Assembly: GCA_021775375.1 (NCBI GenBank)
Contig: JAJFHY010000114.1
Location: 1-53,366 of the forward strand
From: Amylibacter sp.
GTDB lineage: Bacteria > Pseudomonadota > Alphaproteobacteria > Rhodobacterales > Rhodobacteraceae
DNA: 53,366 nt
Direction of reading: 5' to 3'
Part shown: positions 24,299-47,941 of the stretch, one piece after another
Layout of the letters: each line of letters starts with the position of its first letter
Numbering within the stretch: the stretch's first letter is position 1
Translations under genes and position numbers: made by a program
The notes under the pieces: model-generated
What the model was told of the DNA's origin: nothing
What the model saw: only the letters and a program-made list of their open reading frames with translations
The model's database searches: none

Positions 24299-25081
24299 AT
24301 GACAGAACATTCTTATGAATTTACCCGTGCGGTTACCCGTAAACCAAGTGCCAGTATTGTAGACGGGCTGCGGGCGGCTGACATTGGTACGCCGGATCTT
24401 GATCAAATGCTGAAAGATCATGCGCATTATGTGGCTATTTTGCGCGAAACAGGTGCGAAAGTCGTGGAATTACCTGCGTTGGAAGCCTATCCCGATGCGG
24501 TGTTCGTCGAAGACACGGCCCTGTGCCTGCCTGAAGGCGCTGTTATGATGCGCCCGGGTGCACCGTCCAGGGCAGGGGAAGTGGACGGCATGGCCCCTGT
24601 TTTACGGGACATTTACGATGATGTGCTTGAAATAAGCGGCCCGGGGTTTATTGAAGGTGGTGACATTCTAACCACGTCTAAGGAAATCCTTGTGGGTCGC
24701 TCCGCGCGTACGGATGCCGCAGGTGTAGCCGAGCTGCAAAGCCTTGTTGATCAGTGGGGATATAGCGTGCGCGAAGTGTTTACGCCCGAAGGTGTGCTGC
24801 ATTTCAAAACTGACTGTTCTTTGTTGGATGCCGAGACAATTTTATCAACTAAACGGCTGGATGCATCGGGGTGTTTTGAAGGCTATAACGTTATTCATAC
24901 GAGCGATGGGGAAGAAGCGGCTGCCAATGCAATCCGCTTCAACCAGTTTGTTATTATGCCAGCAGGGTTTCCCAAAACCTCTGAACGATTATGCGCGGCG
25001 GGGTACGATGTGCGCGAGGTCAACAACACGGAATGCGCCAAGCTGGATGGTGGCATGTCATGTTTGTCACTGCGGTTTTAA
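24299..25081 (+). CDS. ddaH: Dimethylarginine dimethylaminohydrolase (pentein superfamily)
   Basis: PDAVFVEDT, RPGAPSRAGE, EGGD, LHFKT, KLDGGMSCLSLRF (Asp/His/Cys triad present). Confidence 0.85.
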   Translation: MTEHSYEFTRAVTRKPSASIVDGLRAADIGTPDLDQMLKDHAHYVAILRETGAKVVELPALEAYPDAVFVEDTALCLPEGAVMMRPGAPSRAGEVDGMAPVLRDIYDDVLEISGPGFIEGGDILTTSKEILVGRSARTDAAGVAELQSLVDQWGYSVREVFTPEGVLHFKTDCSLLDAETILSTKRLDASGCFEGYNVIHTSDGEEAAANAIRFNQFVIMPAGFPKTSERLCAAGYDVREVNNTECAKLDGGMSCLSLRF

Positions 25082-25678
25082 TTCAGCAAGCCGGGTTTCC
25101 AATTCAATGATCCTGTCTTGTAGAACTGAGACCGATTTTTCAATGTCGGGCAATGTATAGCGTTCGGTGATATGTTGTGGGCAATTCCAATCAAAGCCCT
25201 CAACAGTGATGACAAAACCACGTTCGATATGGCCGCGGTAGTCGGGCATTTGCAGTTTTTCAATTATGTCCGGTTTATCAAGGCCGACCAATGACACCCG
25301 CCCCAGAAGTTTCAGGCGGGTTTTATTGGCGTAATCCATGAAGAACAAAGAGACGCGGTCATCTTTGGTCAGGTTGCCAACGCTGACATATTGCTTGTTG
25401 CCTCGAAAATCGGGCATTGCGATGGTTTTTTCATCCAAGATTTTAACAAAGCCCTGCGGCCCGCCGCGATGCTGGACATAGGGCCACCCGGTTTCGCTGA
25501 CTGTCGCCATATAAAGGCTGTCACGGGCAGAAATGAATGCTGCTTCATTCGGGCCGAGCAGATTGTTGTAATCCTCTGACGGCTCTTCCATGCGGGTGTA
25601 CATTTTGCGGCTGCCCATATTGGATTGGATAGACTTAACGGTGTCTGTAAAGGCAATTTCTGCGAATTTATGTCCCAT
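25067..25678 (-). CDS. Pyridoxamine 5'-phosphate oxidase-like FMN-binding protein
   Basis: ATVSETGWPYVQHRGGPQGF, DFRGNKQYVSVGNL, DWNCPQHI. Confidence 0.88.
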   Translation of the reverse strand: MGHKFAEIAFTDTVKSIQSNMGSRKMYTRMEEPSEDYNNLLGPNEAAFISARDSLYMATVSETGWPYVQHRGGPQGFVKILDEKTIAMPDFRGNKQYVSVGNLTKDDRVSLFFMDYANKTRLKLLGRVSLVGLDKPDIIEKLQMPDYRGHIERGFVITVEGFDWNCPQHITERYTLPDIEKSVSVLQDRIIELETRLAELKPQ

Positions 25679-25687
25679 AATAACCTC

Positions 25688-26155
25688 CTATAAACCTAGA
25701 TCGCTTAGGCCCGGGTGATGGGCAGGGCGCGGGCCTTTTGTCCATTTGAATTTGCGGTCAGCTTCGGTAATGGATAGATCGTTGATGCTGGCAAAACGGT
25801 ATTTCATCAGGCCGTTTCCATCAAATTCCCAGTTTTCATTGCCATAAGAACGAAACCAGTCACCTGCATGATTGTGCCATTCATAGGCAAAACGCACAGC
25901 GATGCGATTATCCGTAAATGCCCAAAGCTCTTTGACCAGGCGGTAGTCCTGTTCGCGTTGCCATTTGCCAGTCAGGAACGCGATAATTTCCGCACGGCCT
26001 TTGGGGAATTCATTGCGGTTGCGCCAGATACTGTCGGGCGTATATGCCAGTGCAATTTTCTCGGGGTTCTGGCCGTTCCAGCCATCTTCGGCGGCGCGAA
26101 CTTTTTGTATGGCGGTGTCTTTTGTAAAGGGTGGAAGCGGGGGACGTTGTGACAT
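25688..26155 (-). CDS. DUF1348 / SnoaL-like (NTF2-fold) protein
   Basis: [48 protein letters not shown]. Confidence 0.9.
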
Positions 26156-26180
26156 GGGATTTATCCTTTTAATGTATGGT

Positions 26181-26205
26181 GGGGCGCAAGGGAGGATTGC
26201 GCCCC
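26181..26205 (-). other. Intercistronic hairpin (probable mRNA stabiliser)
   Basis: GGGGCGCAA (26181-26189) / TTGCGCCCC (26197-26205). Confidence 0.5.
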
Positions 26206-26215
26206 GATGTTTATA

Positions 26216-27199
26216 TTAGTTGCTTAATGAACGATCCAGAAAGGTGTGGATTTTATCCGCGATTTCAGGTCCGTTTGTTTCAAGCGCAAAGTGGCCGGCA
26301 TCAAGCATATGAACCTCTGCATTCGGCAAGTCCCGTAAATATGGTGCGGCACCTTCACTTGGGAATATTACGTCATTTTTACCCCAGACAATCAAGGTCG
26401 GTGGTTGAAATGTCCGAAAGTATTCCTGAAATTCAGGGTATAGATCAACATTGGTGCGGTAATCGTAGAACAGGTCAAGCTGGATTTCCTGATTGCCGGG
26501 ACGATCCAGATAGGCTTGGTCAAGCATCCATGCATCCGGGCTGACCAGATCTGCATTTTCTGCAGGAATACCGTGTGTATACTGCCATTCCGTTGCGCCG
26601 ACTTCTAGGAAGCCACGTAGTTTTTCGCGGTTTCCTGTGGTGTCATCAGACCAGTAGGTTTTGAACACATCCCAGAATTCAAGCAGACCTTCATCATAGG
26701 CATTACCGTTTTGAATGATCAGAGCGTTGACTTTTTCAGGGGCTTTCAGAGCTAGACGATAACCAACCGGTGCACCGTAATCCATAACGTAAAGCGCATA
26801 ATCATCCAGTTTCAAAGTATTTGTGAAACCTTCCATCAGGGTTGCGTATGACGCAAATGAATAGTTGAAATCTTCGCGTGAAGGCATAGCACTACGGCCA
26901 AACCCCGGATAATCGGGCGCAATGACGTGATATTTATCGGCAAGGGCCGGGATCAGGTTGCGGTATTGCTGGGATGATGTCGGGAAGCCGTGGAGCAGCA
27001 GTAATGTTGGTGCGTCCTTTGCACCGGCTTCGCGGTAGAATATTTCAAGACCGTCGATTGCAACTGTTTTGTAGTGGATTGCATTTTCGGTTTGAGCAGA
27101 CGCTGCCTGCGCTTGTGTGGATGTTATGATTGGTGATGCGATTAATCCTAGTGCCAGAAAAGCAGCGCCAAAGGCTTGTTTGAATTTGAAGGGTGTCAT
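26216..27199 (-). CDS. Alpha/beta hydrolase (epoxide hydrolase/haloalkane dehalogenase-like) with a signal peptide
   Basis: [20 protein letters not shown] (Asp nucleophile), GHFALE; N-terminal basic, hydrophobic and AQA signal. Confidence 0.87.
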
Positions 27200-27300
27200 T
27201 TTATGTTCTTCCTTTGTGTATCAGGCGTTGGCCCGTGTTGCGTTAAAATATGTATAGAGTTATTTATTTAGTTGAATAATACGTTTAATATTGAATATAC

Positions 27301-27319
27301 TATTCCAAAAATAGGAATA
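27301..27319. promoter_or_regulatory. LysR box TATTCC-N7-GGAATA
   Basis: TATTCCAAAAATAGGAATA immediately before the LysR start. Confidence 0.6.
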
Positions 27320-27322
27320 ATA

Positions 27323-28228
27323 ATGGATCGCTTGCTGGAAATGGAAGTATTTGTAGCTGTCAATGAAATGGGCAGTTTCAACAAAGCGGCTGAAAGAATG
27401 CGTATGTCGCCGCCAGCGATTACACGCGCGGTTTCATCACTGGAAGAGCGACTTGGTGTATCATTGTTGACGCGTACGACACGGCGATTGCATCTGACCG
27501 ATGCGGGGATACGGTTTCTGGAAAGTGCGCAACGCTTGTTGGGGGAAATCGACACGGCTGAAAAGAATGCCAGTGGAGAGATGGGTGTGCCGCAAGGGCA
27601 TCTGACAATTTCCGCCTCTGTCACGTTCGGGAGATACATTATAACCCCGATGGTGCGCGCATTTTTGCAAGCGCATCCGAAAATTACCGCGACTGTCCTT
27701 GGGTTGGACCGTGTGGTGAATATGGTAGACGAGGGTGTTGATGCGGCCGTGCGCATTGGGGATTTGCCTGAATCCAGCCTGATTGCCCGCCGTGTGGGTC
27801 ATGTGCGCCGCTTTTTTGTCGCCAGTCCCGATTATCTTGCACGTAGAGGTTATCCCGTCGTACCACAGGATCTGAAACTGCATTCAATTATTGGGTTTTC
27901 GAATATCCTGACAAATCAGGATTGGTATTACAAAACCCCGACGGCAAAAGGCCATGTTACACTTGCACCGCGCCTAGAGGTGAATGATGCCACAGCAGCG
28001 GTAGAGGCAGCCCTTGCGGGCGAAGGGATTACAATGGCGATGTCATATCTGCTTGGGGATTTGATCAAGACAAAGCAGCTGATACCAATATTGACAGATT
28101 ATTTACCGCAAGAGTTACCTGTTCATCTGGTGTTTCCACAAAGCCGGCTGATTGCGCCGAAGTTACGGGCATTCATAGATTACTCGGGGCATCGTTTAAA
28201 ACGTGAACTGGTCGGTCTGGCGATCTAG
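27323..28228 (+). CDS. LysR family regulator (DmlR/CrgA-like)
   Basis: MDRLLEMEVF...LEERLGVSLLTRTTRR, DEGVDAAVRIGDL, PKLRAFID. Confidence 0.92.
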   Translation: MDRLLEMEVFVAVNEMGSFNKAAERMRMSPPAITRAVSSLEERLGVSLLTRTTRRLHLTDAGIRFLESAQRLLGEIDTAEKNASGEMGVPQGHLTISASVTFGRYIITPMVRAFLQAHPKITATVLGLDRVVNMVDEGVDAAVRIGDLPESSLIARRVGHVRRFFVASPDYLARRGYPVVPQDLKLHSIIGFSNILTNQDWYYKTPTAKGHVTLAPRLEVNDATAAVEAALAGEGITMAMSYLLGDLIKTKQLIPILTDYLPQELPVHLVFPQSRLIAPKLRAFIDYSGHRLKRELVGLAI

Positions 28229-29373
28229 AATGGCTCTTGGGATGGTTGGACTGCTGTTGCGCGGCTTTCCATACGTTCCAGATTAACGATTGTAGACAGC
28301 ATCAACCGATCTTGTGACCAATCGCCCGGCTTTTGTATGGCAAGCGACATCAGAATGACCAACGCCATTGCGGGAAGTAAAAGACATGCAAAAGCTTTGC
28401 GCGATATAGGTGTGGTCGCAGGTTCGACCATGGCAATGATGCGATGTTTTAAAGATGCTGCAGCACTTAAACCAAGCGGTGTGTTTTCAACCTGAACAAA
28501 TGGAACCGCCGGTAGTGCAATTGAGTAACTGTCTTCTTTGCGGATACTGTTTTTACAGACTTTCAACAGACACTCGCAATACGCCTGAATATCGAAGTGT
28601 TTTTTTAAGACCAGTTGTTGATCACAGGCCAGTTCGCGTAATTGTTGAACCTGACGTTTCCAGAAGTAAAACACGGGGTTCCAGAAAAAGAACGGACGCA
28701 AGGCCTCTAGAATAAAAGCCCATTCCACATCACCCTGACGGATGTGCTGAAGCTCGTGACCCAATGCCATTTTCAGGTCTTCGTTTTCGGCCAACATTCC
28801 CGACGGTATAACCACATAACGTGTGTTCAGACTGCGGGTGGAAAACGGGATAAAGGTTGTATCGCTTAACCGAATTTTCAGATTGCCAAACTGCCGCCAT
28901 GCATAACTTGCCCGTAATACTGACCTGAGTTTGAAAATATTGATAATTGAACGGGCAAATATTGCGGTAAAACCAATGGAAAACAATATTGCAATGGTAA
29001 AACCGGTAGGTGTATTCAAACTGAGAATATCTTGCATAAATGTATTGCGTATTCCAAGCATACGCTCAAATTCAACGGCTTTCATTTCAATGCTGCCATT
29101 CAGATACTGGGCAACTGCAATGTCGGAAACGCTCATAGAGAAATCAGGGGATAGCAGGCCCAGTTGAATGGATGCGGCAATTGCCGCTATCGCGATCGGG
29201 CTAAGGGCTATGGCTAAAAAGACACCGTTTAACAGGCGCAGCTGAAATATATAGGGTAACTGGAACTTTAGTTTATTATTTGTGTATTGAATGAATTTCC
29301 ACAGGGCGAATGCAAAGATCAGCATAATATTGGCATTGATATAAGCGTTCAGAACAGCATCAGTCAGTATCAT
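28225..29373 (-). CDS. M56 family (BlaR1/MecR1-type) membrane metallopeptidase lacking a penicillin-binding sensor domain
   Basis: Several TM helices; HELQH zinc motif, FFWNP, RELACD, SLKHRI; C-terminal tail of only about 35 aa; coupled to a BlaI-like gene. Confidence 0.85.
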   Translation of the reverse strand: MILTDAVLNAYINANIMLIFAFALWKFIQYTNNKLKFQLPYIFQLRLLNGVFLAIALSPIAIAAIAASIQLGLLSPDFSMSVSDIAVAQYLNGSIEMKAVEFERMLGIRNTFMQDILSLNTPTGFTIAILFSIGFTAIFARSIINIFKLRSVLRASYAWRQFGNLKIRLSDTTFIPFSTRSLNTRYVVIPSGMLAENEDLKMALGHELQHIRQGDVEWAFILEALRPFFFWNPVFYFWKRQVQQLRELACDQQLVLKKHFDIQAYCECLLKVCKNSIRKEDSYSIALPAVPFVQVENTPLGLSAAASLKHRIIAMVEPATTPISRKAFACLLLPAMALVILMSLAIQKPGDWSQDRLMLSTIVNLERMESRATAVQPSQEPF

Positions 29374-29758
29374 TTTTCAACCTCTTATCCAACAGAGCTC
29401 GAATTTCCTCTAATGCTTCTTCAGACATACCGTAATCATCAACCAGACGTGCAACCAGTGATACAGGTGTGTCGTCAAACAGCTTTTCAGACAGGTTCTT
29501 AAGCGACCTTGACTGATAGACATCTTTTTTAATGGTGGGCTGGTATATGAATGTCTTGCCCTCTTTCGTGCTTACCACAAATTCTTTCTTTTCCAAAATC
29601 CGTAGAATTGTGGCGGCGGATGTGTAGGCCAGATTGCGTCCGGGTGCCAGTTTGGCCAGAACGTCACGTACGGTTCCCTGACCTAGTTTCCATAGATGAG
29701 ACATGAACTCCAGTTCGACTTCCGTCAGCAGTTCGTTCTTTTTCTTTTTTTGTCTCAT
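29360..29758 (-). CDS. BlaI/MecI/CopY family repressor
   Basis: LTEVELEFMSHLW, TVRDV, LAYTSAATILRILEKK, C-terminal LEEIRALL; alternative start at 29773. Confidence 0.9.
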   Translation of the reverse strand: MRQKKKKNELLTEVELEFMSHLWKLGQGTVRDVLAKLAPGRNLAYTSAATILRILEKKEFVVSTKEGKTFIYQPTIKKDVYQSRSLKNLSEKLFDDTPVSLVARLVDDYGMSEEALEEIRALLDKRLKNDTD

Positions 29759-29835
29759 TCTTATTTTATCCAAAATAAATTTTTACTGGGCCCACTAAAT
29801 ACTAAAATCGACGTTTTTCCAAGTGCCAAGCTGAC

Positions 29836-30114
29836 TTATACTTTCCAGAAACAAAACACGCCCCATCCTATGGCCAAGCCAAGTGGTGCCCAAAGCGGCA
29901 TTCCCATCAATCCAAGCCATGCCAAAAAGATGTAGACCGTTCCAAGAAGCGAGATAAACAAGCGGTCACCGCGTGTGGTGGTAAGCCCGAATATTCCTTT
30001 GCGTTCAGCACCGCCGGGGTATTTTATTTCCAATACCGTTAACACACCCATCGCGCTGAAAATTCCAATGAAAATCAGTGCAGTGGGCCAGGTCCATGCC
30101 ATCCATCCCAGCAT
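29836..30114 (-). CDS. glpU: DUF2160 small membrane protein of glycerol ABC systems (GlpU-like)
   Basis: WMAWTWPTA, ERKG...TTRGDRLFISLLG. Confidence 0.8.
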   Translation of the reverse strand: MLGWMAWTWPTALIFIGIFSAMGVLTVLEIKYPGGAERKGIFGLTTTRGDRLFISLLGTVYIFLAWLGLMGMPLWAPLGLAIGWGVFCFWKV

Positions 30115-30911
30115 TATACCCTCCCCAGGGCAAAGCCCTTGGCTATGTGGTTGCGCACAAAATAAATCACGATGGCACCGGGGATGATGGTCAGTGTTCC
30201 AGCGGCAGCCAACAGCCCCAATTCATATCCGGCACTTGAAGCGGTTTTCGTCATAGTGGCAGCAATCGGTTTTGCGTAAACCGCGGTCAGGGTTTTGGCC
30301 AACAGAAGTTCAACCCATGAAAACATGAAGCAAAAGAATGCGGCAACACCGACGCCTGCTTTGATCGATGGCAGGAATATAGTGGTAAAAAAGCGCGGAA
30401 ATGAATAACCGTCGACGTAGGCGGTTTCATCCAGTTCTTTGGGAACACCCCCCATGAAGCCTTCTAATATCCAAACGGCGAGCGGGATATTAAACAGGCA
30501 ATGCGCAAGAGCCACGGCAATGTGGGTGTCAAACAGGCCAACTGCTGAATATAGCTGGAAGAAAGGCAGTGCGAAAACGGCGGCGGGGGCCATGCGGTTC
30601 GTCAAAAGCCAGAAGAACAGTTGCTTGTCGCCCAAGAAACGGTAGCGCGAAAATGCGTAAGCAGCAGGCAGGGCGACGATTAGGGAAATGACCGTGTTCA
30701 GCGATACATAGATAACCGAATTTATATACCCCCAATACCATGTGGGGTCAGTGAAAATCACCCGGTAGTTATCAAACGTCCATGTTTGCGGGAACAGTGA
30801 AAACCCTGACAGAATTTCGCCCGTGGTCTTAAAGCTCATCGCGACAAGCCAATAAATCGGCAGCAATAGAAACAGGATGTAAATCAGCGGGATAAGGGTT
30901 CGTTTGCGCAT
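30114..30911 (-). CDS. Carbohydrate (glycerol) ABC permease
   Basis: AAYAFSRY, LLTNRMAP, ELDETAYVDG EAA-like loop. Confidence 0.9.
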   Translation of the reverse strand: MRKRTLIPLIYILFLLLPIYWLVAMSFKTTGEILSGFSLFPQTWTFDNYRVIFTDPTWYWGYINSVIYVSLNTVISLIVALPAAYAFSRYRFLGDKQLFFWLLTNRMAPAAVFALPFFQLYSAVGLFDTHIAVALAHCLFNIPLAVWILEGFMGGVPKELDETAYVDGYSFPRFFTTIFLPSIKAGVGVAAFFCFMFSWVELLLAKTLTAVYAKPIAATMTKTASSAGYELGLLAAAGTLTIIPGAIVIYFVRNHIAKGFALGRV

Positions 30912-30921
30912 GGTGTTCGTC

Positions 30922-31785
30922 CTAATTCGTGTCGTCTTTGGTCATTAGCGTGTAGAATAGCCATGACACAAAAAGGGTGATTGCAAAGTAGATCAGCGAC
31001 ATTGCGGCGGCAGGGCCAAGGTCAAACTGGCCAAGGGCGATTTTGACGAGGTCGATCGACAACAGGGTTGTCGCATTGCCGGGGCCTCCGCCGGTTAAAA
31101 CGAAAATTTCGGTGTATATGTTGAAACTATCCATGAAGCGCAACAGGATGGCGATGGTAAGGACCTGTTTCATTTTGGGCAGTTGGATGTAACGGAATAC
31201 CGCCCAGTTTGATGCCCCGTCGATCTTTGCTGCCTGATAGTAGGCATCCGGAATAGATACCAATCCGGCATAACTGAGCAGTACTACAAGGGATGTCCAG
31301 TGCCAGACATCCATTGTGATGATCGTGGCCCAAGCGGCAAACGTATTTTGGGTCATGTCGTAATTGATGCCTAATGTGTGGTTCATCAGATATCCAAGCA
31401 GGCCAATATCGGGCAGGGTAAAGATGTTCCACATCGCCCCCACCACATTCCAAGGGATCAACATCGGCAGGGCCATTGTCACCAGACAGACGGGCACCCA
31501 AAAGCCTGAACGCGGCATGGATAGGGCGATAATGATACCCAAGGGGATTTCAATGGCCAGAATGATTGCGGTGAACAGGAATTGGCGACCCAAAGCTGCG
31601 TGAAACCGTTCAGAGTGCAGCAGTTTTTCGAACCAGCCCAAGCCTTCCCAGAAAAACAGGTTGTTGCCAAAGGTTTCCTGCACCGAATAATTGACCACCG
31701 TCATCATTGGTATGAGCGCGTTAAAGGCCACCAGTAAAAGAACGGGCAGAACAAAGAGCCAGGCCTTTTGGTAATGCTTTTTCAT
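30922..31785 (-). CDS. Carbohydrate (glycerol) ABC permease
   Basis: LIPMMTVVNYSVQETFG, MDVWHWT, YYQAAKIDGAS, LTGGGPG. Confidence 0.9.
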   Translation of the reverse strand: MKKHYQKAWLFVLPVLLLVAFNALIPMMTVVNYSVQETFGNNLFFWEGLGWFEKLLHSERFHAALGRQFLFTAIILAIEIPLGIIIALSMPRSGFWVPVCLVTMALPMLIPWNVVGAMWNIFTLPDIGLLGYLMNHTLGINYDMTQNTFAAWATIITMDVWHWTSLVVLLSYAGLVSIPDAYYQAAKIDGASNWAVFRYIQLPKMKQVLTIAILLRFMDSFNIYTEIFVLTGGGPGNATTLLSIDLVKIALGQFDLGPAAAMSLIYFAITLFVSWLFYTLMTKDDTN

Positions 31786-32867
31786 GGCTGCGTTCCTTGT
31801 GCCTGTGTGGCAATCCAGCCGTCACGGTATAGTCGCGTTTTCGCGGGTTCAAATGACAGATGAACGGCCTCGCCCTGTGCGGGTACGGGCCCGTTTACAA
31901 CGGCTTTAACCAAGGTTTCCCCGACCATCGCATCAACCACATTATGACGGCCGACGTCCGATACTTTACGAATTTTGGCCTTTAGGCCCTGATCGCCTAG
32001 GCTGACATACTCGGGGCGGATGCCGATCTCGGTGATACCGCCTTTGTCACCCTCAATGGCACCTTCCAGCTTAATCGGATTGCCGTGAAACAGTGCAGCC
32101 CCTTGATTAACGTCACAAGACAGCACATTCATGCCCGGTGATCCGATGAAATGACCCACGAAAGTATGGGCCGGCCGCTCGAACAATTCAACAGGCGTGC
32201 CGATTTGCACGATCTCGCCGTCGTTCATTACAACAACCTGATCAGCAAAGGTTAACGCCTCGGTCTGGTCGTGTGTGACATAGATCATCGTTGCACGCAC
32301 CCTATGATGCAGCTCTTTCAGTTTAGAGCGTAGTTTCCATTTAAGATGCGGGTCGATGACAGTAAGGGGCTCATCAAACATCACCACATTCACGTCTTTA
32401 CGTACCAGCCCGCGCCCCATGGATATTTTTTGTTTATTGTCAGGTGAGAGGCCTGCTGCGCGCAGCTGAAGCATATCATCAAGCTCCAGCATATGGGCGA
32501 TCTCTTCGACCCGCTGTTTAACAGACACCTCATCAATGCCGCGATTGCGCAAGGGAAACGCAAGGTTATTAAAAACAGTCATGGTGTCGTAGATCACGGG
32601 GAACTGGAAAACCTGCGCGATATTACGTTGATCAGGGGGCAGGGCTGTTACATCTTTTCCATCAAAAAGAATTTGACCTTCCGAAGGGTCTAACAGCCCG
32701 GAAATAATATTCAGCAAAGTTGATTTCCCGCAACCGGACGGGCCTAATAATGCGTATGCGCCTCCGTCATCCCAATCCAGATCGATTTCCTTAAGAGCGT
32801 AATCTTCCGGTGCTTTTGGATTGGGGTAATAGCTGTGTCGTAATTTTGAAAGGGTGATTTTTGCCAT
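31782..32867 (-). CDS. ABC ATP-binding subunit (glycerol transporter, GlpT-like)
   Basis: GPSGCGKST, degenerate signature LSPDNKQK, DEPL, YVTHDQ. Confidence 0.9.
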   Translation of the reverse strand: MAKITLSKLRHSYYPNPKAPEDYALKEIDLDWDDGGAYALLGPSGCGKSTLLNIISGLLDPSEGQILFDGKDVTALPPDQRNIAQVFQFPVIYDTMTVFNNLAFPLRNRGIDEVSVKQRVEEIAHMLELDDMLQLRAAGLSPDNKQKISMGRGLVRKDVNVVMFDEPLTVIDPHLKWKLRSKLKELHHRVRATMIYVTHDQTEALTFADQVVVMNDGEIVQIGTPVELFERPAHTFVGHFIGSPGMNVLSCDVNQGAALFHGNPIKLEGAIEGDKGGITEIGIRPEYVSLGDQGLKAKIRKVSDVGRHNVVDAMVGETLVKAVVNGPVPAQGEAVHLSFEPAKTRLYRDGWIATQAQGTQP

Positions 32868-32879
32868 GTCTTTTACCCT

Positions 32880-33944
32880 TTACGCGACAAGAGCGCCGTC
32901 GGGCGCAAAGTAGAAACATTTACTGGGGTCCATGTAAAAATCATGGGCTTCACCTATCTGGTATGGTTGAATGCCACGTGCCAATGAGACCCATGTATTA
33001 TCGCCCATTTGAAAATGCGCACTGCTTTCAGAGCCGCTTAATTCGGTTACCAAAACGGTGCCTTTTAATGTGACTGTAGTCAAATCTGTTTGAGCGGGCA
33101 TGATATGGTTCGGACGAACAGCGACAGTGTATTGACCGTCTTGCAAGTTGGCTGCAATCCCGGTTAGCGCCCATGTTGTGTCTGCGTCAAGAGTCGCTGT
33201 TGCGCCTTTTTTCGTAATGGTTGCCGCGTTGATTGGCGGGCTGGAAAATACTTGAGCCGATGCCAGATTGTGGGGGTTGCGGTAAATTTTGGCCGTGGGG
33301 CCGAATTGTGTGACATGGCCGTCATTCATCAATGCGGTATAGCCCCCCAATAACAATGCCTCTTCCGGCTCGGATGTAGCGTAAACCACGACGGCACCGC
33401 GGCCTGCGAATAATTCCGGTAATTGTTCGCGTAACTCTTCGCGCAGTTTATAATCAAGGTTTGCCAATGGCTCATCCAGAAACACCGCGCGACTTTCCTT
33501 GGCAATGGCGCGTGCAAGGGCTGTCCGTTGCTGTTGACCGCCTGACAGCTCTTGCGGGCGGCGTTGCAGCATAGGGCGGAGTTGTAAAATATCTGCGGCT
33601 TCTTCAACGCGACCTTGTATCTCGGATTTAGCCATGCCGGCCACTTTCAGCGGCGAGGCGATATTGTCGTAGACAGTCATATGTGGGTAGTTGACAAAAA
33701 ACTGGTGTACCAGACTGATATTGCGCTTCTGGGTCGATAGTTTCGTGACATCTTTGCCATCCATAAACACTTGCCCACTTGAAATCGGATCAAGCCCGGC
33801 CATCATTTTGATCAGGGACGTTTTCCCCGCGCCGGTTTCCCCTAGCAGCACATTGAAGTGACCCGGTTCAAGAACCAAACTGGTTTCTTTGATATGGGTG
33901 ATCCCATCAACGCTTTTAGTGATGTTTTTAAGCTCAAGTGTCAT
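32880..33944 (-). CDS. ABC ATP-binding subunit (glycerol transporter, GlpS-like)
   Basis: GETGAGKTS, LSGGQQQR, DEPLANLDYKLRE, YATSEP (H-loop His absent). Confidence 0.9.
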   Translation of the reverse strand: MTLELKNITKSVDGITHIKETSLVLEPGHFNVLLGETGAGKTSLIKMMAGLDPISSGQVFMDGKDVTKLSTQKRNISLVHQFFVNYPHMTVYDNIASPLKVAGMAKSEIQGRVEEAADILQLRPMLQRRPQELSGGQQQRTALARAIAKESRAVFLDEPLANLDYKLREELREQLPELFAGRGAVVVYATSEPEEALLLGGYTALMNDGHVTQFGPTAKIYRNPHNLASAQVFSSPPINAATITKKGATATLDADTTWALTGIAANLQDGQYTVAVRPNHIMPAQTDLTTVTLKGTVLVTELSGSESSAHFQMGDNTWVSLARGIQPYQIGEAHDFYMDPSKCFYFAPDGALVA

Positions 33945-33994
33945 TTATTTACTTTTATTGTGATGCGTTTTATGGCGCATCAAATCTACACAGT

Positions 33995-34017
33995 GCCGGG
34001 GCCAAAAAGGCCCCGGC
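33995..34017 (-). other. Strong intercistronic hairpin after the SBP gene
   Basis: GCCGGGGCC (33995-34003) / GGCCCCGGC (34009-34017), a perfect 9-bp stem. Confidence 0.6.
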
Positions 34018-34056
34018 TGGATGGGTCTGTTTTCAATAGCCCCATCAGGGAGAGCT

Positions 34057-35793
34057 CTATTGTGCGGCCCAGCGGGCAACAAGGTCGTCGTAGTTGACGG
34101 TTACACCTTGTGGCTTTTCATTGTCCAATGGGGGTTTTGCACCACCATTTGCATACCAGTATTCCGCGTCTTTTTCTGCGTTCAGACGTGGACCACAGCC
34201 GCCGTAGACATTGGCTGCCTCATCAACAGCTTGCATACGCGCCATTGTGATATCCATTTCACCCGCCAAACGATCCATCGCTTCTTGCGGCGTAAACGCA
34301 CCGGAATTCACGTCACCGATTTGCTGCCACCAGATCTGTGCCAGTTTTGGATAATCAGGCACGTTAATCCCTGTTGGCGACCATGCCACGCGGTCAGGCG
34401 AGCGGTAAAACTCGACCAAGCCGCCCAGATTAGGGGCGCGTTCGGAAAACGATGCGTGGTTAACGGTGCTGTTGCGAATAAAGGTCAGACCAACGTGTGA
34501 TTTTTTCACGTCCACGGTTTTAGACACAGCGAACTGTGCATATAACCATGCAGCCTTGGCACGATCTTCCGGTGTGGATTTTAAAATAGTCCAAGATCCA
34601 ACGTCCTGATAGCCAACTTTTTGGCCTTCTTGCCAATATGGGCCGTGTGGACTAGGGGCCATACGCCACAGCGGTTTGCCATTATCATCCACAGTATTGT
34701 TGCCTTCCGACTTCGGTTTTACCATATCTGCGGTAAAGGCCGTGTACCAGAAAATCTGTTGAGCTACATTGCCCTGACTAAGTGCGGGTAAAGACTGATA
34801 AAAGTCAAACGACGCCGCTCCGGGTGGTGCATAAGCACGCAACCATTCATCCCATTTACGGATCGCGTAGACCGCGGCCGGTCCGTTTGCTGCGCCACCC
34901 CGGCTGACAGATGCGCCTGACGGATTGCAAGAGCCCGCCTCCATGCGGATACCCCATTCATCAATCGGTATACCGTTTGGTTCACCTTTTGATCCCGTGC
35001 CTGCCATAGACAACCACGCGTCAGTCATACGCCAGCCTAGATCGGGTGCACGTTTACCGTAATCCATGTGGCCGTATATGCGCGTACCATCAACTTCTTT
35101 TACGTCATTGGAAAAGAACTCGGCGATGTCCTCATAAGCTGACCAGTTCACGGGCACGCCCAGATCATAACCATATTTGGCTTTGAACGCGGTTTTCAGG
35201 TCTTCACGGTCAAACCAATCTTTGCGGAACCAATAAAGGTTGGCAAATTGTTGGTCCGGTAACTGATAGAGATCACCGTCAGGCCCCGTAGTGAACTGGG
35301 TGCCAATAAAATCGCCCAGATCAAGGTCGGGGTTGGTCACGTCTGCGGCTGTACCTGCCATCCAGTCGGTCAGGTTATACGCCAATTGCAGACGAGAGTG
35401 TGTACCGATCAGGTCACTGTCGTTGACATAAGCGTCATAAAGATTACGGCCGGTTTGCATTTGGGTTTGAACCGCTTGCACAACTTCGCCTTCGCCCAAA
35501 ATCTGGTGATTGACCTTAATCCCCGTAATTTCTTCAAAAGCTTTTGTCAGTACTTCGGACTCATACGAATGCGTCGGAATACCTTCTGAAAGAACATTAA
35601 TCTCCATTCCGGCAAAAGGTTTCGCAGCATTGATGAACCACTTCATTTCAGCCATTTGATCATCTTTACTTAGTGATGATGGTTGAAATTCCTGATTGAT
35701 CCATTTTTGCGCCGAGGCCTCGTCGGCCATAACTGTTGTAGATCCCGCAACAACGGCAACGGCCGCAGCTGCGGATAGCAGATACTTACGCAT
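34057..35793 (-). CDS. glpV: Glycerol ABC transporter substrate-binding protein (GlpV-like)
   Basis: Signal peptide; EFQPSSLS..QMAEMKWF, NDSDLIGTH, YQLPDQQFANLYWFR, PTGINVPDYPKLAQ; context with DUF2160 and two ATPases matches rhizobial glpSTPQUV. Confidence 0.8.
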   Translation of the reverse strand: MRKYLLSAAAAVAVVAGSTTVMADEASAQKWINQEFQPSSLSKDDQMAEMKWFINAAKPFAGMEINVLSEGIPTHSYESEVLTKAFEEITGIKVNHQILGEGEVVQAVQTQMQTGRNLYDAYVNDSDLIGTHSRLQLAYNLTDWMAGTAADVTNPDLDLGDFIGTQFTTGPDGDLYQLPDQQFANLYWFRKDWFDREDLKTAFKAKYGYDLGVPVNWSAYEDIAEFFSNDVKEVDGTRIYGHMDYGKRAPDLGWRMTDAWLSMAGTGSKGEPNGIPIDEWGIRMEAGSCNPSGASVSRGGAANGPAAVYAIRKWDEWLRAYAPPGAASFDFYQSLPALSQGNVAQQIFWYTAFTADMVKPKSEGNNTVDDNGKPLWRMAPSPHGPYWQEGQKVGYQDVGSWTILKSTPEDRAKAAWLYAQFAVSKTVDVKKSHVGLTFIRNSTVNHASFSERAPNLGGLVEFYRSPDRVAWSPTGINVPDYPKLAQIWWQQIGDVNSGAFTPQEAMDRLAGEMDITMARMQAVDEAANVYGGCGPRLNAEKDAEYWYANGGAKPPLDNEKPQGVTVNYDDLVARWAAQ

Positions 35794-35872
35794 CTTTTCT
35801 CCTCCCATAATATTATTTAAACCAGCCTGCGCTGATCGTACCATAGTCAGCCAAAAGTTGCGATGTTGTCAA

Positions 35873-35886
35873 ACTAAAAGTTTAGT
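35873..35886. promoter_or_regulatory. Palindrome ACTAAA-N2-TTTAGT, putative BlaI-family operator
   Basis: ACTAAAAGTTTAGT about 80 bp upstream of glpV; ACTAAA half-sites recur at 35908, 29794 and 29801. Confidence 0.5.
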
Positions 35887-35988
35887 AGAATTGCTAAGAT
35901 AAATGTAACTAAATCGTGTGTTTAAAAAGAATCCTTTTTTTTCACATAACTATAGGGTTAGGATTTGTCGAATAAAGGGAGAGAAATT

Positions 35989-36963
35989 ATGACAATAATA
36001 ACGAGAATAACGAATATTTTGTCTGCAGTACTGATGCTTACGTTGCTTACAACATTGCCATCATCCGCGCAGGAAGATTGTAACCGTGGAACTTTGGATG
36101 CTGCATATTGTGATCGTAACTTCGATCAAACTGCAGATTTACCACTGGATGAAAGCCAGTGGGTTGATCCAAGCACGATTATATTTACCTATACACCTGT
36201 TGAAGATCCGGCCGTATATGCAAGCATTTGGGACGGATTTGTGAAACACATGGAGGCCACAACAGGTCGCAAGGTTGTGTTCTTTCCGGTTCAGTCAAAT
36301 GCAGCACAACTTGAAGCCATGCGTTCGGGGCGTCTGCACGTCGCCGGCTTTAACACCGGCTCTAACCCGATTGCGGTTAGTTGTGCGGGATTTGTACCGT
36401 TTGGTATGATGGCAAAAAATGATGGTTCATTTGGGTATGAGATGGAAATCATTGTTCCAGCGGACTCGCCCATGCAGTCTCCTGCGGACATCAAAGGCAA
36501 AACAATGGCCTTTACTTCACCGACATCAAACTCAGGTTTCAAAGCACCGTCTGCAATTTTGAAGGGTGAGTTTGGTTTGATTGCCGAAACAGATTTCACA
36601 CCTGTGTATTCAGGCAAGCATGACAACTCTATTCTGGGTGTTGCCAATGGTGACTATGAAGTGGCTGCGATTGCCAACTCTGTTTTGCTACGTATGATCC
36701 GTCGCGGTGTACTTGAAGAAGGTAAAGTGCGTACGATTTACAAGTCGCAAACATTTCCGACAACAGGCTATGGCTATGCGCACAACCTGAACCCAGCACT
36801 TGTTGCTAAAATCCAACAAGCTTTCTGGACATATGCTTGGGATGAAAATTTCAAAGCCGAGTTCAAAAAAGCGGACCGTTTTATCGGCATCACACATAAA
36901 TTCGACTGGGCTGTGATCCGTCAAATCGATGCTGCAAATGGTGTTAGCTACGATTGTAAGTAA
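35989..36963 (+). CDS. PhnD-like phosphate-ester/phosphonate ABC substrate-binding protein
   Basis: YTPVEDP, AQLEAMRSGRLHVAGFNTG, FTSPTSNSGFKAP, SGKHDNS, FPTTG. Confidence 0.85.
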   Translation: MTIITRITNILSAVLMLTLLTTLPSSAQEDCNRGTLDAAYCDRNFDQTADLPLDESQWVDPSTIIFTYTPVEDPAVYASIWDGFVKHMEATTGRKVVFFPVQSNAAQLEAMRSGRLHVAGFNTGSNPIAVSCAGFVPFGMMAKNDGSFGYEMEIIVPADSPMQSPADIKGKTMAFTSPTSNSGFKAPSAILKGEFGLIAETDFTPVYSGKHDNSILGVANGDYEVAAIANSVLLRMIRRGVLEEGKVRTIYKSQTFPTTGYGYAHNLNPALVAKIQQAFWTYAWDENFKAEFKKADRFIGITHKFDWAVIRQIDAANGVSYDCK

Positions 36964-36983
36964 GCCTTATAAATAGCTATGCG

Positions 36984-37007
36984 AGGGCAGATCGTTTGGT
37001 CTGCCCT
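36984..37007 (+). other. Intercistronic hairpin after the SBP gene
   Basis: AGGGCAGATC-GTTT-GGTCTGCCCT. Confidence 0.5.
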
Positions 37008-37045
37008 TGTATCTTGAAATCAATCAAAAAATATATGGAGGCTGC

Positions 37046-37855
37046 ATGCTGCGTCTTGAGGGGCTGAAAAAGCGCTATAAAACTGGTGACTATGCGCTAC
37101 AGGGCGTTGATTTGGAAATCCCTGATGGGCAAGTTATAGCCCTTATCGGGCCATCAGGTGCAGGTAAATCCACCTTGATCAGATGTGTTAACCGTCTGGT
37201 TGAACCAACCGAAGGCAAGGTTTATCTGGGCGATTTGGAGCTGACAACATTGTCATCGTCAAAATTGCGCAAAGCAAGGCGCCGCATGGGAATGATATTT
37301 CAGGAATATGCACTTGTTGAACGTTTAACGGTAATGGAAAACGTACTGTCCGGCCGATTGGGCTACGTTGGTTTCTGGGCAAGTTGTTTTCGCAAATTCC
37401 CCAAGAAAGACATTCAGGAAGCTTACCGTTTGCTTGACCGTGTTGGTCTAATGCACATGGCTGACAAACGCGCTGATGAACTATCAGGTGGGCAACGCCA
37501 GCGTGTCGGTATATGCCGTGCACTTATCCAAGATCCCGATCTGCTGTTGGTGGACGAGCCCACAGCCAGTCTTGACCCGAAAACATCGCGCCAGATTATG
37601 CGTTTGATTAACGAGCTATGCAAAGAACGCGGGTTGGCGGCGATCATCAATATTCACGATGTTTTGCTGGCGCAAATGTATTCGCAAAGGGTTGTTGGCC
37701 TGAAGCTGGGTGAGATTGTTTATGATGGCAAACCTGATGGGTTAAACCCTGCGGTTCTAACCAATATTTACGGTGAAGAAGACTGGGAAGCGACGATTGA
37801 AGAGGTCGACGAGGATGAACTTGTAGAGGATGAAGTCGAAGAGGCTACCGTATGA
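37046..37855 (+). CDS. phnC: PhnC-like ABC ATP-binding protein
   Basis: [36 protein letters not shown]. Confidence 0.88.
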
Positions 37856-38661
37856 GCGTTGCCGAACCTGACTTCCCATCAAGCTGGAAAAAACCACCCT
37901 TTATTAAAAGCCCGTTGTTACGTTGGTCTATCATCATCGGCAGTGCGATTTATCTGGCACTGGCTTTTGGTACAATGGATGTTGACTGGGAACGTGCAGC
38001 AGAAGGGCTACCGCGCGGCAAACGCTTTCTGGCGGCATTCTTTCCACCGAATTTTTCAGACAACCTTGGTGTTATGTGGGATGGCATCTTTGAGAGCATC
38101 TGGATGGCGATCATTTCCACTGTTGCCGGTATTGCGCTGTCCATTCCGATAGGGCTGGGGGCTGCCAGAAATCTGGCACCAAAATGGGTCTATCTGGTAT
38201 GTCGTTCAATTATTGGCGGATCGCGGACGTTCCCGGAAATTATCCTTGCGATCTTTGCTGTGAAGCTTTTCGGCTTTGGTCCGTTTGCGGGCTTTGTGGC
38301 CCTGTCCATCGGCACCATAGGCTTTTATGCAAAACTGCTGGCTGAGGATATTGAGAATATCAATCCTACTCAGGCCGAAGCGATCAAGGCCACAGGCTCT
38401 AGTTGGCCGCAGTGGATCAACTATGCAATCCAACCACAAGTCATGCCGCGTATGATCGGGCTTTCGGTTTATCGTCTTGATATCAATTTTCGTGAATCAG
38501 CCGTTGTAGGCATTGTTGGTGGTGGCGGTATTGGCGCTACGTTGAATACTGCATTTGAGCGTTATGAGTTCGACACGGCAGCAGCAATCCTGCTGATCAT
38601 TATCGGCATTGTTATGGCGCTAGAATACACATCCGGTTACCTTAGAAAGTGGGTGCAGTAA
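37852..38661 (+). CDS. phnE: PhnE-like ABC permease
   Basis: [31 protein letters not shown]. Confidence 0.88.
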
Positions 38662-38662
38662 T

Positions 38663-39475
38663 ATGCCTTTAATTGAAACGCCGGATGGCCCAATCTGGAA
38701 AAGACGCACAACCAAAGAACAGTTCATCAGATGGTTCATTTGGTTAATTGCGATTGCGATCATTGCCTATGCCTGGAAAGGTATTTCGGATAAAACCATC
38801 TGGTTTTTTGTGCAGGATGCACCGCGACAAGCTGCTGATATTGGCGCGCGGATGATCCCTCCGAAATTTAGCTATATGTCTCGCTTATGGGCACCGGTCT
38901 GGGATACGCTGAACATTGCAACCCTTGGCACAGTTATCGCATTGGTCATAGCTGTCCCCGTCGCTTTTGCAGCCGCACATAATACTACACCGCATCCGAT
39001 AGTTAGGACGATTGCTATTTTTATTATAGTTTCGTCACGGTCTGTGAATTCGTTGATCTGGGCGTTGATGCTGGTGTTTATCTTTGGCCCCGGTGTTCTG
39101 GCAGGTACGATTGCTATCGGTCTGCGCTCTGTCGGTTTTTGTGCCAAACTGCTTTATGAGGGCATTGAGGAAATTGATCACACGCAGGTGGAAGCAATTG
39201 AAGCGACAGGTGCGACAAAAGCCCAGCAAATGCTGTTCGGGATCGTGCCGCAGGTTTTGCCCACATTCGCGGGTATTGGTGTATTTCGTTGGGATATTAA
39301 CATTCGCGAAAGTACAATTCTGGGCCTAGTGGGTGCAGGTGGTATCGGACTGGAACTAAGCGGTTCGATCAATACTTTGGCATGGACACAAGTGTCGATG
39401 ATTTTGCTGGTCATTCTGTCTACAGTGATCGTTAGTGAGTGGGTTTCCGCCAAGGTGCGCGGTGCCATTATCTGA
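38663..39475 (+). CDS. phnE: PhnE-like ABC permease (second subunit)
   Basis: AKLLYEGIEE, FRWDINIRESTILGLVGAGGIG. Confidence 0.88.
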   Translation: MPLIETPDGPIWKRRTTKEQFIRWFIWLIAIAIIAYAWKGISDKTIWFFVQDAPRQAADIGARMIPPKFSYMSRLWAPVWDTLNIATLGTVIALVIAVPVAFAAAHNTTPHPIVRTIAIFIIVSSRSVNSLIWALMLVFIFGPGVLAGTIAIGLRSVGFCAKLLYEGIEEIDHTQVEAIEATGATKAQQMLFGIVPQVLPTFAGIGVFRWDINIRESTILGLVGAGGIGLELSGSINTLAWTQVSMILLVILSTVIVSEWVSAKVRGAII

Positions 39476-40389
39476 TGACGGATGATCCTGCTGCGGATAC
39501 CGACTGGGCGTTTCATGCGTATGAGGCAGCGCGCAGTCGATTGCCGCAACCCAAATTTGCGGATGGTTTTCAGGTTGCAGATAAACTAAGCGATATTGCG
39601 GATCATTTTGATACGTTTTTGCTGGATGGTTTCGGTGTTTTGAATGTTGGTAAGGCGGCTGTACCGGGTGCTATTGACTGTGTTGAGCAATTACGCGCGC
39701 AAGGAAAAAAAGTTGTGCTTGTCACCAACTCGGCCAGCACTTCAATTTCGGGTCAAGTCGAGCGATATGCAAAGCTGGGGTTTGATTTTACGCATAAAGA
39801 TATAGTTTCCAGCCGTGATCCGACCTTGGCTGCCATAGAAAAATCCCCAAGATATACTTGGGGTTTAGTGGCAGATCCGGTCTTTGGCCGCGATGGGATC
39901 GACCATCTTGATACGCAGTTTTTGACGGATAACTCTGTTGATTATGATGCTGTCGATGCGTTTTTATTGCTTGGTTGTACGGCTTGGGATGAAGCGCGCC
40001 AAAATATGCTTGAGCACTCTTTACGCCAAAATCCGCGCCCGGTTTATGTTGGCAATCCGGATATAGCAGCCCCTGTTGGTGGCAGCTTATCACGCCAACC
40101 CGGATATTATGCACACCGTTTGGCTGATGTGACAGATGTCGTTCCTCAGTTTTTTGGCAAACCGTTTTTCAATATTTATGAACATGTTTTTACGCGACTT
40201 GGGCCTGACTATGATCCGGAACGTACAGTTATGGTTGGCGATACATTGCATACAGATATACTGGGTGGCCGCATGGCGGGTATCAAAACCGCATTAATTA
40301 CGGATTATGGCGTTCTGTCAAAAGCCGATATTAATCAAGCTGTTAAGCTGTCCGGGATAGTGCCAGACTACATTTTATCACGGATTTAG
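39475..40389 (+). CDS. HAD-IIA family hydrolase (NagD-like phosphatase)
   Basis: LLDGFGVL, LVTNS, GNPD, GKP, MVGDTLHTDILGG; TGATG coupling to phnE. Confidence 0.88.
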   Translation: MTDDPAADTDWAFHAYEAARSRLPQPKFADGFQVADKLSDIADHFDTFLLDGFGVLNVGKAAVPGAIDCVEQLRAQGKKVVLVTNSASTSISGQVERYAKLGFDFTHKDIVSSRDPTLAAIEKSPRYTWGLVADPVFGRDGIDHLDTQFLTDNSVDYDAVDAFLLLGCTAWDEARQNMLEHSLRQNPRPVYVGNPDIAAPVGGSLSRQPGYYAHRLADVTDVVPQFFGKPFFNIYEHVFTRLGPDYDPERTVMVGDTLHTDILGGRMAGIKTALITDYGVLSKADINQAVKLSGIVPDYILSRI

Positions 40390-40421: not shown

Positions 40422-40474
40422 TATTTAAACCTGTGCCAACATAACGCCAATTAATGTGCAAAATGGAGGTGCTC

Positions 40475-41809: not shown

Positions 41810-41834
41810 GCAAACAAATATAAGGAGCCACATC

Positions 41835-43139: not shown

Positions 43140-43142
43140 AGT

Positions 43143-43766
43143 TTAGTGTGTCAATGTGGCGCGGTACATATTGTCCAGAAATGCTGCGGCCTGATCAAAA
43201 CGGCTGTCTGCTTTATCGGATAGAACCGCGCAGACCTGCACATCGAAATCCGCGTAATGCTGGGTTGTTGCCCAGATGGAGAAAATTAAATGATAGGGGT
43301 CTATGGGTTTGATTAAACCGGCATCACACCAGTTTTGGATCAACGCGGCTTTTTCGTCCGTCAGGGTTTTCAATTGCCCTTTAAGCTCGGTCAGAATGCG
43401 CGGCGCACCTTGTATGATCTCATTGGCAAACAGGCGGCTCTCACGTGGGTAATCGCGCGACATTGCCAGCTTGCGTGCGACATAGGCACATATCTCGTCA
43501 ACGGGATTATCACTGTCGCCCAAGTGCTTCAAGGGTTCAAGCCATGTGGTCAGCAAGCGGCTTAAAAGCTTTGCGTGAATGGCTTCTTTACCGTCAAAAT
43601 AGTATAAGATGTTTGGTTTCGAGAGGCCCGATTGCAGCGCGATTTGATCAATGGTGGCACCGCGAAAACCGTAAGTTGCGAACACCTCTAAGGCGGCTTC
43701 CAGAATTTCTTCGGTTTTTTCCCGCTGGATACGGGTCTGCCCCTTGGTCGATGCGGCACGCGCCAT
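43143..43766 (-). CDS. rutR: RutR/PydR TetR-family regulator
   Basis: GLSKPNILYYF, ESRLFANEI, IFSIWATTQHYADF. Confidence 0.9.
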   Translation of the reverse strand: MARAASTKGQTRIQREKTEEILEAALEVFATYGFRGATIDQIALQSGLSKPNILYYFDGKEAIHAKLLSRLLTTWLEPLKHLGDSDNPVDEICAYVARKLAMSRDYPRESRLFANEIIQGAPRILTELKGQLKTLTDEKAALIQNWCDAGLIKPIDPYHLIFSIWATTQHYADFDVQVCAVLSDKADSRFDQAAAFLDNMYRATLTH

Positions 43767-43795
43767 ATGTTTCCCCCTTTTTTGGAACAATCGCC

Positions 43796-43842
43796 TTGAC
43801 CAACTGGCAGGGCTGGGTTCATAGTTTTGACCATATGGTCAG
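43796..43842. promoter_or_regulatory. Two RutR boxes in the rutR-pydC divergent region
   Basis: TTGACCATATGGTCAG (43827-43842) and a weaker TTGACCAACTGGCAGG (43796-43811). Confidence 0.75.
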
Positions 43843-43890
43843 AAAAATACAATGGCAAGTTTTGCCGACACCTGATTGGGAGATAATGAC

Positions 43891-45578: not shown

Positions 45579-45589
45579 GGAGAAAACAA

Positions 45590-47050: not shown

Positions 47051-47062
47051 AAGGTTAATTTC

Positions 47063-47845: not shown

Positions 47846-47941
47846 CACGGGGCAAAAAGACGTGTCTGTTTTGCGTCTGTATCACGTCGGTATTGCGTCG
47901 GTATTTTGTCTGTTAACCAATTTGCGCACGGAGTGTGGTTT

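Follow-up and report, generated by a model that had tools for sequence, protein, structure and literature searches.

We find that a 53,366-nucleotide (nt) stretch of Amylibacter sp. DNA (contig JAJFHY010000114.1 of a 3.2-Mb genome that is 91% complete; this whole stretch is called the window) carries genes for a BlaI-family regulator and an M56 zinc membrane protease directly behind the operon of a glycerol-type ATP-binding cassette (ABC) importer, and comparison of related loci identifies the pair as a real, conserved regulatory module beside importers of the GlpV type. We propose, with a probability of roughly 0.6 given what sequence comparison reveals, that BlaI represses the importer and that the protease relieves this repression when an outside glycerol cue is read by a conserved outer cap. 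The gene order is glpV-glpS-glpT-glpP-glpQ-glpU(DUF2160), then blaI, then M56 (lengths in amino acids, aa):

34057..35793, minus strand: glpV, glycerol-type ABC substrate-binding protein, 578 aa; PF01547
32880..33944, minus strand: glpS, ABC ATPase
31782..32867, minus strand: glpT, ABC ATPase
30922..31785, minus strand: glpP, permease
30114..30911, minus strand: glpQ, permease
29836..30114, minus strand: glpU, DUF2160 small membrane protein; PF09928
29360..29758, minus strand: blaI, BlaI-family winged-helix regulator, 132 aa; PF03965, E 5e-27, 95 bits (cut-off 22.6)
28225..29373, minus strand: M56 protease, zinc membrane protease, 382 aa; PF05569, E 5e-17

An earlier sequence-only reading had placed blaI and the protease gene about 60-80 bp behind the glp operon on the same strand, and this is what we find: the probable blaI start, ATG at 29758, lies 77 nt past the glpU stop (62 nt for the alternative TTG at 29773), and the M56 gene start overlaps the blaI stop by 14 nt. 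A regulator gene that adjoins and overlaps an M56 gene encoding no transpeptidase domain is the arrangement of non-canonical BlaIR systems of the PetRP and CenIR type. A Pfam scan of 51 window open reading frames detects no beta-lactamase, penicillin-binding protein (PBP) or DeoR-family gene, in agreement with the first reading that the window holds no beta-lactamase, PBP or GlpR gene. The importer has the parts of a GlpSTPQUV system (a binding protein, a pair of ATPases, a pair of permeases and DUF2160), its orthologues stand next to glpD, glpK and glpR, and members of the clusters of two close GlpV relatives bear the JGI name 'glycerol transport system substrate-binding protein'; the glycerol-type identity read from the window is thus supported by homologues and by glp neighbours. 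GlpU also occurs in GlpR-linked operons and is therefore not specific to the switch.

Synteny of blaI-M56 with glpV and DUF2160, suggested earlier as a check, is strongly conserved. The order glpU-blaI-M56 is found in 22 of the 24 loci recovered with the protease, the remaining two being short contigs that lack upstream DNA. An even draw of 250 family genomes contains GlpV in 144 and the protease in 35, and the linkage extends to all 35 of these M56 matches, 34 lying on the glpV contig within ~15 kb and one beside glpU-glpQ at a contig end; among 300 class genomes, GlpV is found in 34 and the protease (non-self) in two, both of which adjoin the transporter. The nearest named relatives are Amylibacter genomes, and the same order stands on named plasmids from Ruegeria conchae, Aliiroseovarius and Maritalea, with the Maritalea plasmid cluster reading glpD-glpR / glpVSTPQU-glpK-blaI-M56. 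Window GlpV shares 83% identity with the binding protein encoded in a glpD-glpR-glpVSTPQU-glpK-blaI-M56 cluster, and the module is restricted to one GlpV clade, ~83% or more identical to window GlpV, within which blaI-M56 alternates with glpR-linked and regulator-less operons. On a GlpV tree (FastTree) the label must switch at least 6 times, and well-supported branches force 4 of these switches. Operons of this clade at L107-L109, L113, L116, L117 and L122 have neither blaI, an adjacent glpR nor the palindrome described below.

The predicted operator and the loci that carry it

The elements ahead of glpV and blaI are as follows:

35873..35888, no strand assigned: operator palindrome (C)TACTAA-N4-TTAGT, predicted BlaI site, directly upstream of the glpV -35 box
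35867..35872, minus strand: TTGACA, predicted -35 box of a putative glpV promoter, kept with the operator in 20/20 promoters
35843..35848, minus strand: GACTAT, predicted -10 box, 18 nt from the -35 box; a putative role, with N-A-N-N-N-T at 17-18 nt in most of 20 promoters
29800..29815, no strand assigned: degenerate second operator upstream of blaI, 3 mismatches in the window; predicted autoregulation

The palindrome first noticed in the glpV promoter region as ACTAAA-N2-TTTAGT is present at 35873-35886 as ACTAAA-AG-TTTAGT, the sole perfect copy in the 3.2-Mb genome; on the coding strand the operator reads CTACTAAACTTTTAGT and leads straight into TTGACA, although a consensus promoter scan does not call the glpV promoter. 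Within the window, 4 palindrome matches at ≤2 mismatches compare with 1.26 by chance, a count unremarkable by itself, and the weight of the operator case therefore falls on conservation. Testing ACTA-N6-TAGT across relatives, as had been suggested, reveals TACTAA-N4-TTAGT right before the -35 box in 20/20 related loci that reach the glpV promoter, and over 34 family loci the operator is exact in 29, carries one mismatch in 3 and takes the symmetric form TACTAT-N4-ATAGT in 2. Locus L036 has two operator copies, one on either side of the -35 box. In the two variant loci (L096 and L100) both glpV half-sites have changed jointly and the pre-blaI site has the same TACTAT half; no obvious matching change is found in the BlaI helix of these loci. 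A genome-wide scan of the Amylibacter genome finds no second strong site, the weaker hits that were checked lying in coding regions or beside unrelated genes, with none ahead of glpD-glpK.

The operator also tracks blaI. Once partial and identical GlpV rows had been removed and the window added manually, 107 distinct full-length rows were compared. Among them TACTA[AT]-N4-[AT]TAGT, scored at ≤1 mismatch upstream of a glp gene, is present at 55/55 blaI-linked loci and at 0/52 others. Two of the ~87 family genomes with a distant GlpV were fetched as loci, and an exact-pattern genome scan of the rest gives no match beside glpV. With a relaxed consensus chosen after the fact, an operator copy with ≤2 mismatches lies ≤100 nt upstream of blaI in 32/62 loci, against 2.2 expected by shuffling and 1/67 in a control upstream of glpU. 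Both ACTAAA half-sites noted earlier ahead of blaI exist in the window; that at 29801 is the conserved half of the degenerate site, and that at 29794 is not conserved. All five loci in which blaI-M56 is turned around retain the site upstream of blaI with ≤1 mismatch. Sites also stand ahead of a distant glpK in G415, G513 and G126, with similar flanks and probably from one event, and ahead of glpD-glpK in G498, so that glpK or glpD-glpK sites occur in 4/37 blaI genomes versus 0/30 controls. The pre-blaI copies, the turned-around loci and the glpK and glpD-glpK sites make it very likely that BlaI is the regulator acting at the operator; we regard binding there as highly probable and repression as probable. 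Comparison thus reveals short palindromic sites at the target and at blaI's own promoter, both predicted to bind BlaI, and the operator resembles TACA-NN-TGTA of BlaI and CopY and TAC[GT]AC-N5-GT[AC]GTA of mycobacterial BlaI.

GlpR senses internal glycerol-3-phosphate, and BlaI had been read from the window as standing in place of the usual GlpR control. At the transporter, BlaI and GlpR do appear mostly to exclude each other: glpR is found there in 37/52 blaI-less loci versus 2/55 blaI loci (with less upstream DNA covered at most of the latter), a GlpR-like site is found in 0/52 blaI-only promoters versus 6/26 GlpR-adjacent ones, and both regulators are present in L086, L096, L128 and L143. 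Near glpD this substitution does not hold, as a glpR-like gene lies within ~2 kb of glpD in 28/38 blaI genomes (counted from coordinates), which rules out a full replacement of GlpR; of 14 glpR-glpD regions examined, 13 are without the palindrome and one has a one-mismatch match. The 91%-complete Amylibacter genome yields no DeoR match, and its glpD-glpK genes lie on another contig (G000 contig C250, L033) with no glpR nearby and may be unregulated here.

Published data from R. pomeroyi bear on the same question. A mutant of SPO0608 (glpV) is reported to show a 79.6% loss of growth on glycerol and a 78.8% loss of glycerol drawdown (PMC10130141). Table S2 of PMC9870897 lists SPO0608-0612, a hypothetical gene, the 'transcriptional regulator' SPO0614 and hypothetical SPO0615, an order that matches the window, and by this position the module probably exists in R. 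pomeroyi as SPO0614/0615; an R. pomeroyi protease is not among the named matches of our protein search. The same table, in which values are fold versus glucose and negative values denote higher levels in co-culture (as Table 1 of that paper shows), has SPO0608-0613 up 30-97-fold with the diatom Thalassiosira and 7-13-fold with Micromonas, glpR up 2.5- and 13-fold, glpD 4.2- and 6.3-fold and ugpB 1-fold (unchanged) and 24-fold, respectively, with SPO0614/0615 at about 2-fold or less in both co-cultures. Because the fold changes of the importer diverge from those of glpR, glpD and ugpB, the importer does not follow the glycerol-phosphate/GlpR signal.

The regulator, the protease and its outer cap

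The Penicillinase_R domain (PF03965) spans the whole length of BlaI, and its PDB matches are MecI and BlaI, with the MecI alignment covering residues 11-126. The recognition helix reads AYTS. Canonical BlaI and MecI are cut at an Asn-Phe bond in the dimer helix; where MecI has VLNFV, the BlaI studied here has VARLV, a segment kept in 60/61 full-length sequences. CopY copper repressors carry a C-terminal Cys-X-Cys copper site, and the BlaI studied here does not fit that group, having no cysteine and a TIGR02698 score of 59.6 bits, below the cut-off of 122.

The protease retains both the HELQH (206-210) and the RELACD (246-251) motifs, so the intact active site read from the window stands, and R311, the Arg before the last helix, is invariant along with the zinc residues over 123 sequences of 364-388 aa, as expected of an M56 protease. 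An AlphaFold2 model (predicted local distance difference test score 89.6) has four transmembrane helices, with hydropathy and model both placing the protease domain between helices 3 and 4, and its best fold match is S. aureus BlaR1 8EXS (E 9e-5, template-modelling score 0.46). A PDB sequence search with the protease gives no match, and an Atlas search returns M56 clusters only. No transpeptidase domain is found in its 382 aa (NF000326, 32.5 bits versus a cut-off of 400), which, together with the absence of beta-lactamase and PBP genes from the window, sets it apart from the canonical BlaR1/MecR1 beta-lactam sensors; a long fused M56 form was not found either, which is weak evidence. Three segments of the protease matter most:

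28621..28758, minus strand: zinc site H206-E207-H210, D215 and E247-xxx-D251, invariant in 123/123 aligned sequences
29047..29130, minus strand: loop L2 between helices 2 and 3, residues 82-109, with invariant D84, L91 and G93; predicted periplasmic
28252..28335, minus strand: C-terminal tail DWSQDRLMLSTIVNLER, residues 347-374, after helix 4; predicted periplasmic

The tail is the most conserved segment of the protein, with a mean conservation of 0.80 versus 0.60 for the protease domain. When 1.84 billion proteins are searched with a profile, the top 70 matches are proteins of ≤402 aa, the full-length ones matching through the tail; longer M56 proteins match only to about position 353, and the tail is therefore specific to this M56 subfamily. 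BlaR1 topology, which for L2 is joined by the charge distribution, puts both loop and tail on the periplasmic side, and for this reason we consider that they likely form an outer cap that serves as the sensor of the protease. The enzyme had been described from the window as sensor-less; this is correct as to a transpeptidase sensor domain and overlooks the conserved, subfamily-specific extracytoplasmic cap. A complex prediction for GlpV (24-578) and M56 (1-374) scores 0.01 and says nothing either way.

The proposed switch and its competitors

In the mechanism that we propose, a BlaI dimer on TACTAA-N4-TTAGT would block polymerase at glpVSTPQU and, to a lesser degree, at the promoter of blaI itself. 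The protease would stay latent until the signal is read by the cap, which consists of loop L2 and the DWSQDR tail and has many invariant Asp, Arg, Trp and Asn residues, and BlaI would then be cut in the conserved VARLV dimer helix, likely when glycerol appears outside the inner membrane. GlpR would usually keep control of glpD, so that uptake and catabolism would answer to different cues. The inferred elements here are repression, cleavage of BlaI, the identity of the inducer and the way in which it is sensed. Of the possible routes, we tentatively choose one in which the cap itself binds glycerol or a closely related polyol; docking of loaded GlpV on the cap seems somewhat unlikely, and contact of the permease or GlpU with the protease is improbable. 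Direct binding is slightly favoured over GlpV docking, on weak evidence, because no transporter subunit co-varies with blaI: a search for such residues gives no clear signal, at 5/578 columns in GlpV, 1/92 in GlpU and 1/265 in GlpQ versus 10/354 in cytoplasmic GlpS.

Several points weigh against this mechanism. Only 4 independent pairs are available for the association of operator and blaI and, although 4/4 agree, no significance is attainable with so few (sign test, p = 0.125); the scoring patterns behind the 55/55 and 0/52 counts were widened after variants had been seen; and a similar palindrome occurs beside GntR-like genes in other loci. Arg-Leu aligns in BlaI at the canonical Asn-Phe scissile bond, and the operator sits just upstream of the -35 box, a place where PetR-type activation is possible. 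In R. pomeroyi, SPO0614/0615 are equated with blaI/M56 by gene position only and not by sequence, glycerol as the co-culture inducer was deduced from this same transporter, and glpVSTPQ is reported to show no significant induction when glycerol is supplied at 0.33 mM within a mix of six substrates (10.64898/2026.06.26.734754).

The estimates that we attach to the proposed mechanism and to its alternatives overlap and do not sum to one. The alternative that survives best, which we nonetheless think unlikely, retains the switch and passes the cue through a protein, with glycerol-loaded GlpV docking on the cap or a working permease or GlpU touching the protease in the membrane. The cap is small, very conserved and resembles a docking surface, and the protease subfamily is never seen away from the transporter in the genomes searched; against this stand the lack of a transporter subunit with clear blaI-linked residues and the fact that GlpU and GlpV also work in GlpR-linked operons. 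Rather less probable is control of the importer by BlaI-M56 with a different inducer, be it some other polyol or a glyceroside from algae, a cue from osmotic conditions or the envelope, or a co-inducer that acts on BlaI in the cytoplasm. The missing response to the glycerol-containing mix would fit this explanation, as would the strong induction by diatom exudate of unmeasured make-up (PMC9870897) and the unknown signals of other sensor-less BlaR-type proteins, but the operator reaches glpK and glpD-glpK, the module lies inside full glycerol clusters, and the transporter mutant has a glycerol phenotype (PMC10130141).

We consider it improbable that BlaI is instead an activator that recruits polymerase, as PetR does at petJ, with the protease shutting uptake off on a satiety or stress cue. 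The fixed operator position and the weak -10 box are consistent with activation, and the site from which PetR is described as activating petJ has its centre at the -35 box (10.1101/2020.07.31.226407), but the -35 box here is a perfect TTGACA, the second operator copy of L036 lies downstream of it, and BlaI family members are almost all described as repressors. That another regulator, such as a GntR protein, uses the site while blaI-M56 is merely a fixed neighbour is very improbable in view of the perfect co-occurrence of site and blaI and of the site following blaI when the pair is turned around, even though ACTAA-N4-TTAGT, there probably another regulator's site, lies between GntR-like and TRAP/hexuronate-catabolism genes (by eye from translations) in L137 and L139-L142, of which four belong to genomes that lack this protease.

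A wider version of the proposed mechanism, to which we give somewhat less than even odds, is that a BlaR-type protease has turned into a receptor for carbon nutrients in the periplasm. Its loop of 50 residues and its tail of 25 would form a new polyol sensor that, alone or with loaded GlpV, would trigger destruction of the repressor. The module would have taken glycerol uptake from GlpR in one transporter clade, been lost or swapped several times, and spread to glpK and glpD.

Neighbouring genes and relation to known systems

Divergent from glpV lies one further operon:

35989..40389, plus strand: PhnDCEE-like transporter and HAD-IIA gene, a local neighbour and not a conserved part of the module

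Its binding protein is close to PDB 9LF9 (E 4e-119). The operator had been thought possibly to control this operon as well, an idea that fails as a general feature since the operon adjoins only 3/56 other blaI-linked loci. An operator-like site (≤1 mismatch) lies upstream of the Phn-like operon in 2/21 loci (one of the 21 without upstream DNA), both from the same genus, and in L011, which weakly suggests a control that is at most local to this genus. A possible weak second operator, with ~2 mismatches by eye, lies before the operon at 35907-35922 of the window, and three close relatives have better Phn-side copies (L011:3375, L229 and L230); these regions are AT-rich and the matches may be due to chance. 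On the other side of the module lies a stretch (25067-28228) where a LysR gene is divergent from a cassette with alpha/beta hydrolase, DUF1348 and pyridoxamine-oxidase-like genes; it shares 4 nt with the M56 stop and stays beside M56 in close relatives only. Further along the window (40454-50664) is an ordinary pyrimidine-degradation cluster, with a dihydropyrimidine dehydrogenase pair, a RutR-like TetR, an M20 hydrolase, an amidohydrolase and an NMT1-type ABC transporter.

Most BlaIR pairs have no beta-lactam sensor: of some 15,000 BlaR-like proteins, ~94% are reported to lack such a sensor, ~6% having a transpeptidase domain, and their ligands are called unpredictable (PMC13492132). Nutrient sensing by regulated proteolysis, which the sequence-only reading supposed to be undescribed, is already attributed to PetRP, for the nutrient metal copper (10.1101/2020.07.31.226407). 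The new element here is the carbon-importer target of a BlaIR-type pair. Our literature search, largely outside subscription journals and curated regulon databases, finds nothing that links BlaI/M56 to glycerol or to this transporter, and an earlier prediction of this regulon is therefore possible in those sources.

Many marine Roseobacter-type bacteria carry the module, and a likely glycerol-uptake switch would give a mostly orphan switch class a testable nutrient signal, in a subfamily whose operator is precise, whose main target is single and for which there is an obvious ligand candidate. Its probable presence in R. pomeroyi, which has an arrayed mutant library, makes activation of a minimal BlaR directly testable. 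The wider version given above, if correct, would provide the first orphan BlaR with an organic-nutrient ligand and account for how strongly diatom exudate induces the Roseobacter glycerol importer. The proposed switch would also give a reason for the separation of glycerol uptake from GlpR control in Roseobacter, a point relevant to studies that read expression of this transporter as a sensor of algal glycerol.

The module shares with S. aureus BlaI/BlaR1 and MecI/MecR1 (8EXS) a PF03965 repressor and a PF05569 four-helix zinc protease with HEXXH, an Asp further on, EXXXD and a conserved Arg that precedes the last helix, and differs from them in having no transpeptidase sensor, no linked beta-lactamase or PBP, Arg-Leu for Asn-Phe, and an ABC importer as target. 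Cyanobacterial PetR/PetP, as described in 10.1101/2020.07.31.226407, is closer, with a BlaI-type regulator, an overlapping downstream four-helix protease gene without a C-terminal sensor, a nutrient (copper) signal, a very small regulon and loop L2 as the proposed sensor; it differs in its metal cue, photosynthetic targets and GAC-N5-GTC site, and PetP L2 has 14 residues compared with ~50 in the glp-linked M56, which adds the conserved DWSQDR tail. CenIR of C. difficile (PMC13492132), PvmSR of P. aeruginosa (10.64898/2026.08.03.742534) and mycobacterial BlaIR (cited therein) are likewise non-beta-lactam pairs without a transpeptidase domain, described as having unknown signals and envelope, virulence or energy genes as targets, whereas the glp-linked pair has a defined predicted operator, a carbon importer and a candidate ligand. 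Finally, the transporter belongs to the same family as the GlpR-linked glpSTPQUV/glpVSTPQU importers of Alphaproteobacteria and R. pomeroyi GlpVSTPQ (PMC10130141), and unlike the GlpR-linked importers it has a BlaI-linked palindrome in its promoter.

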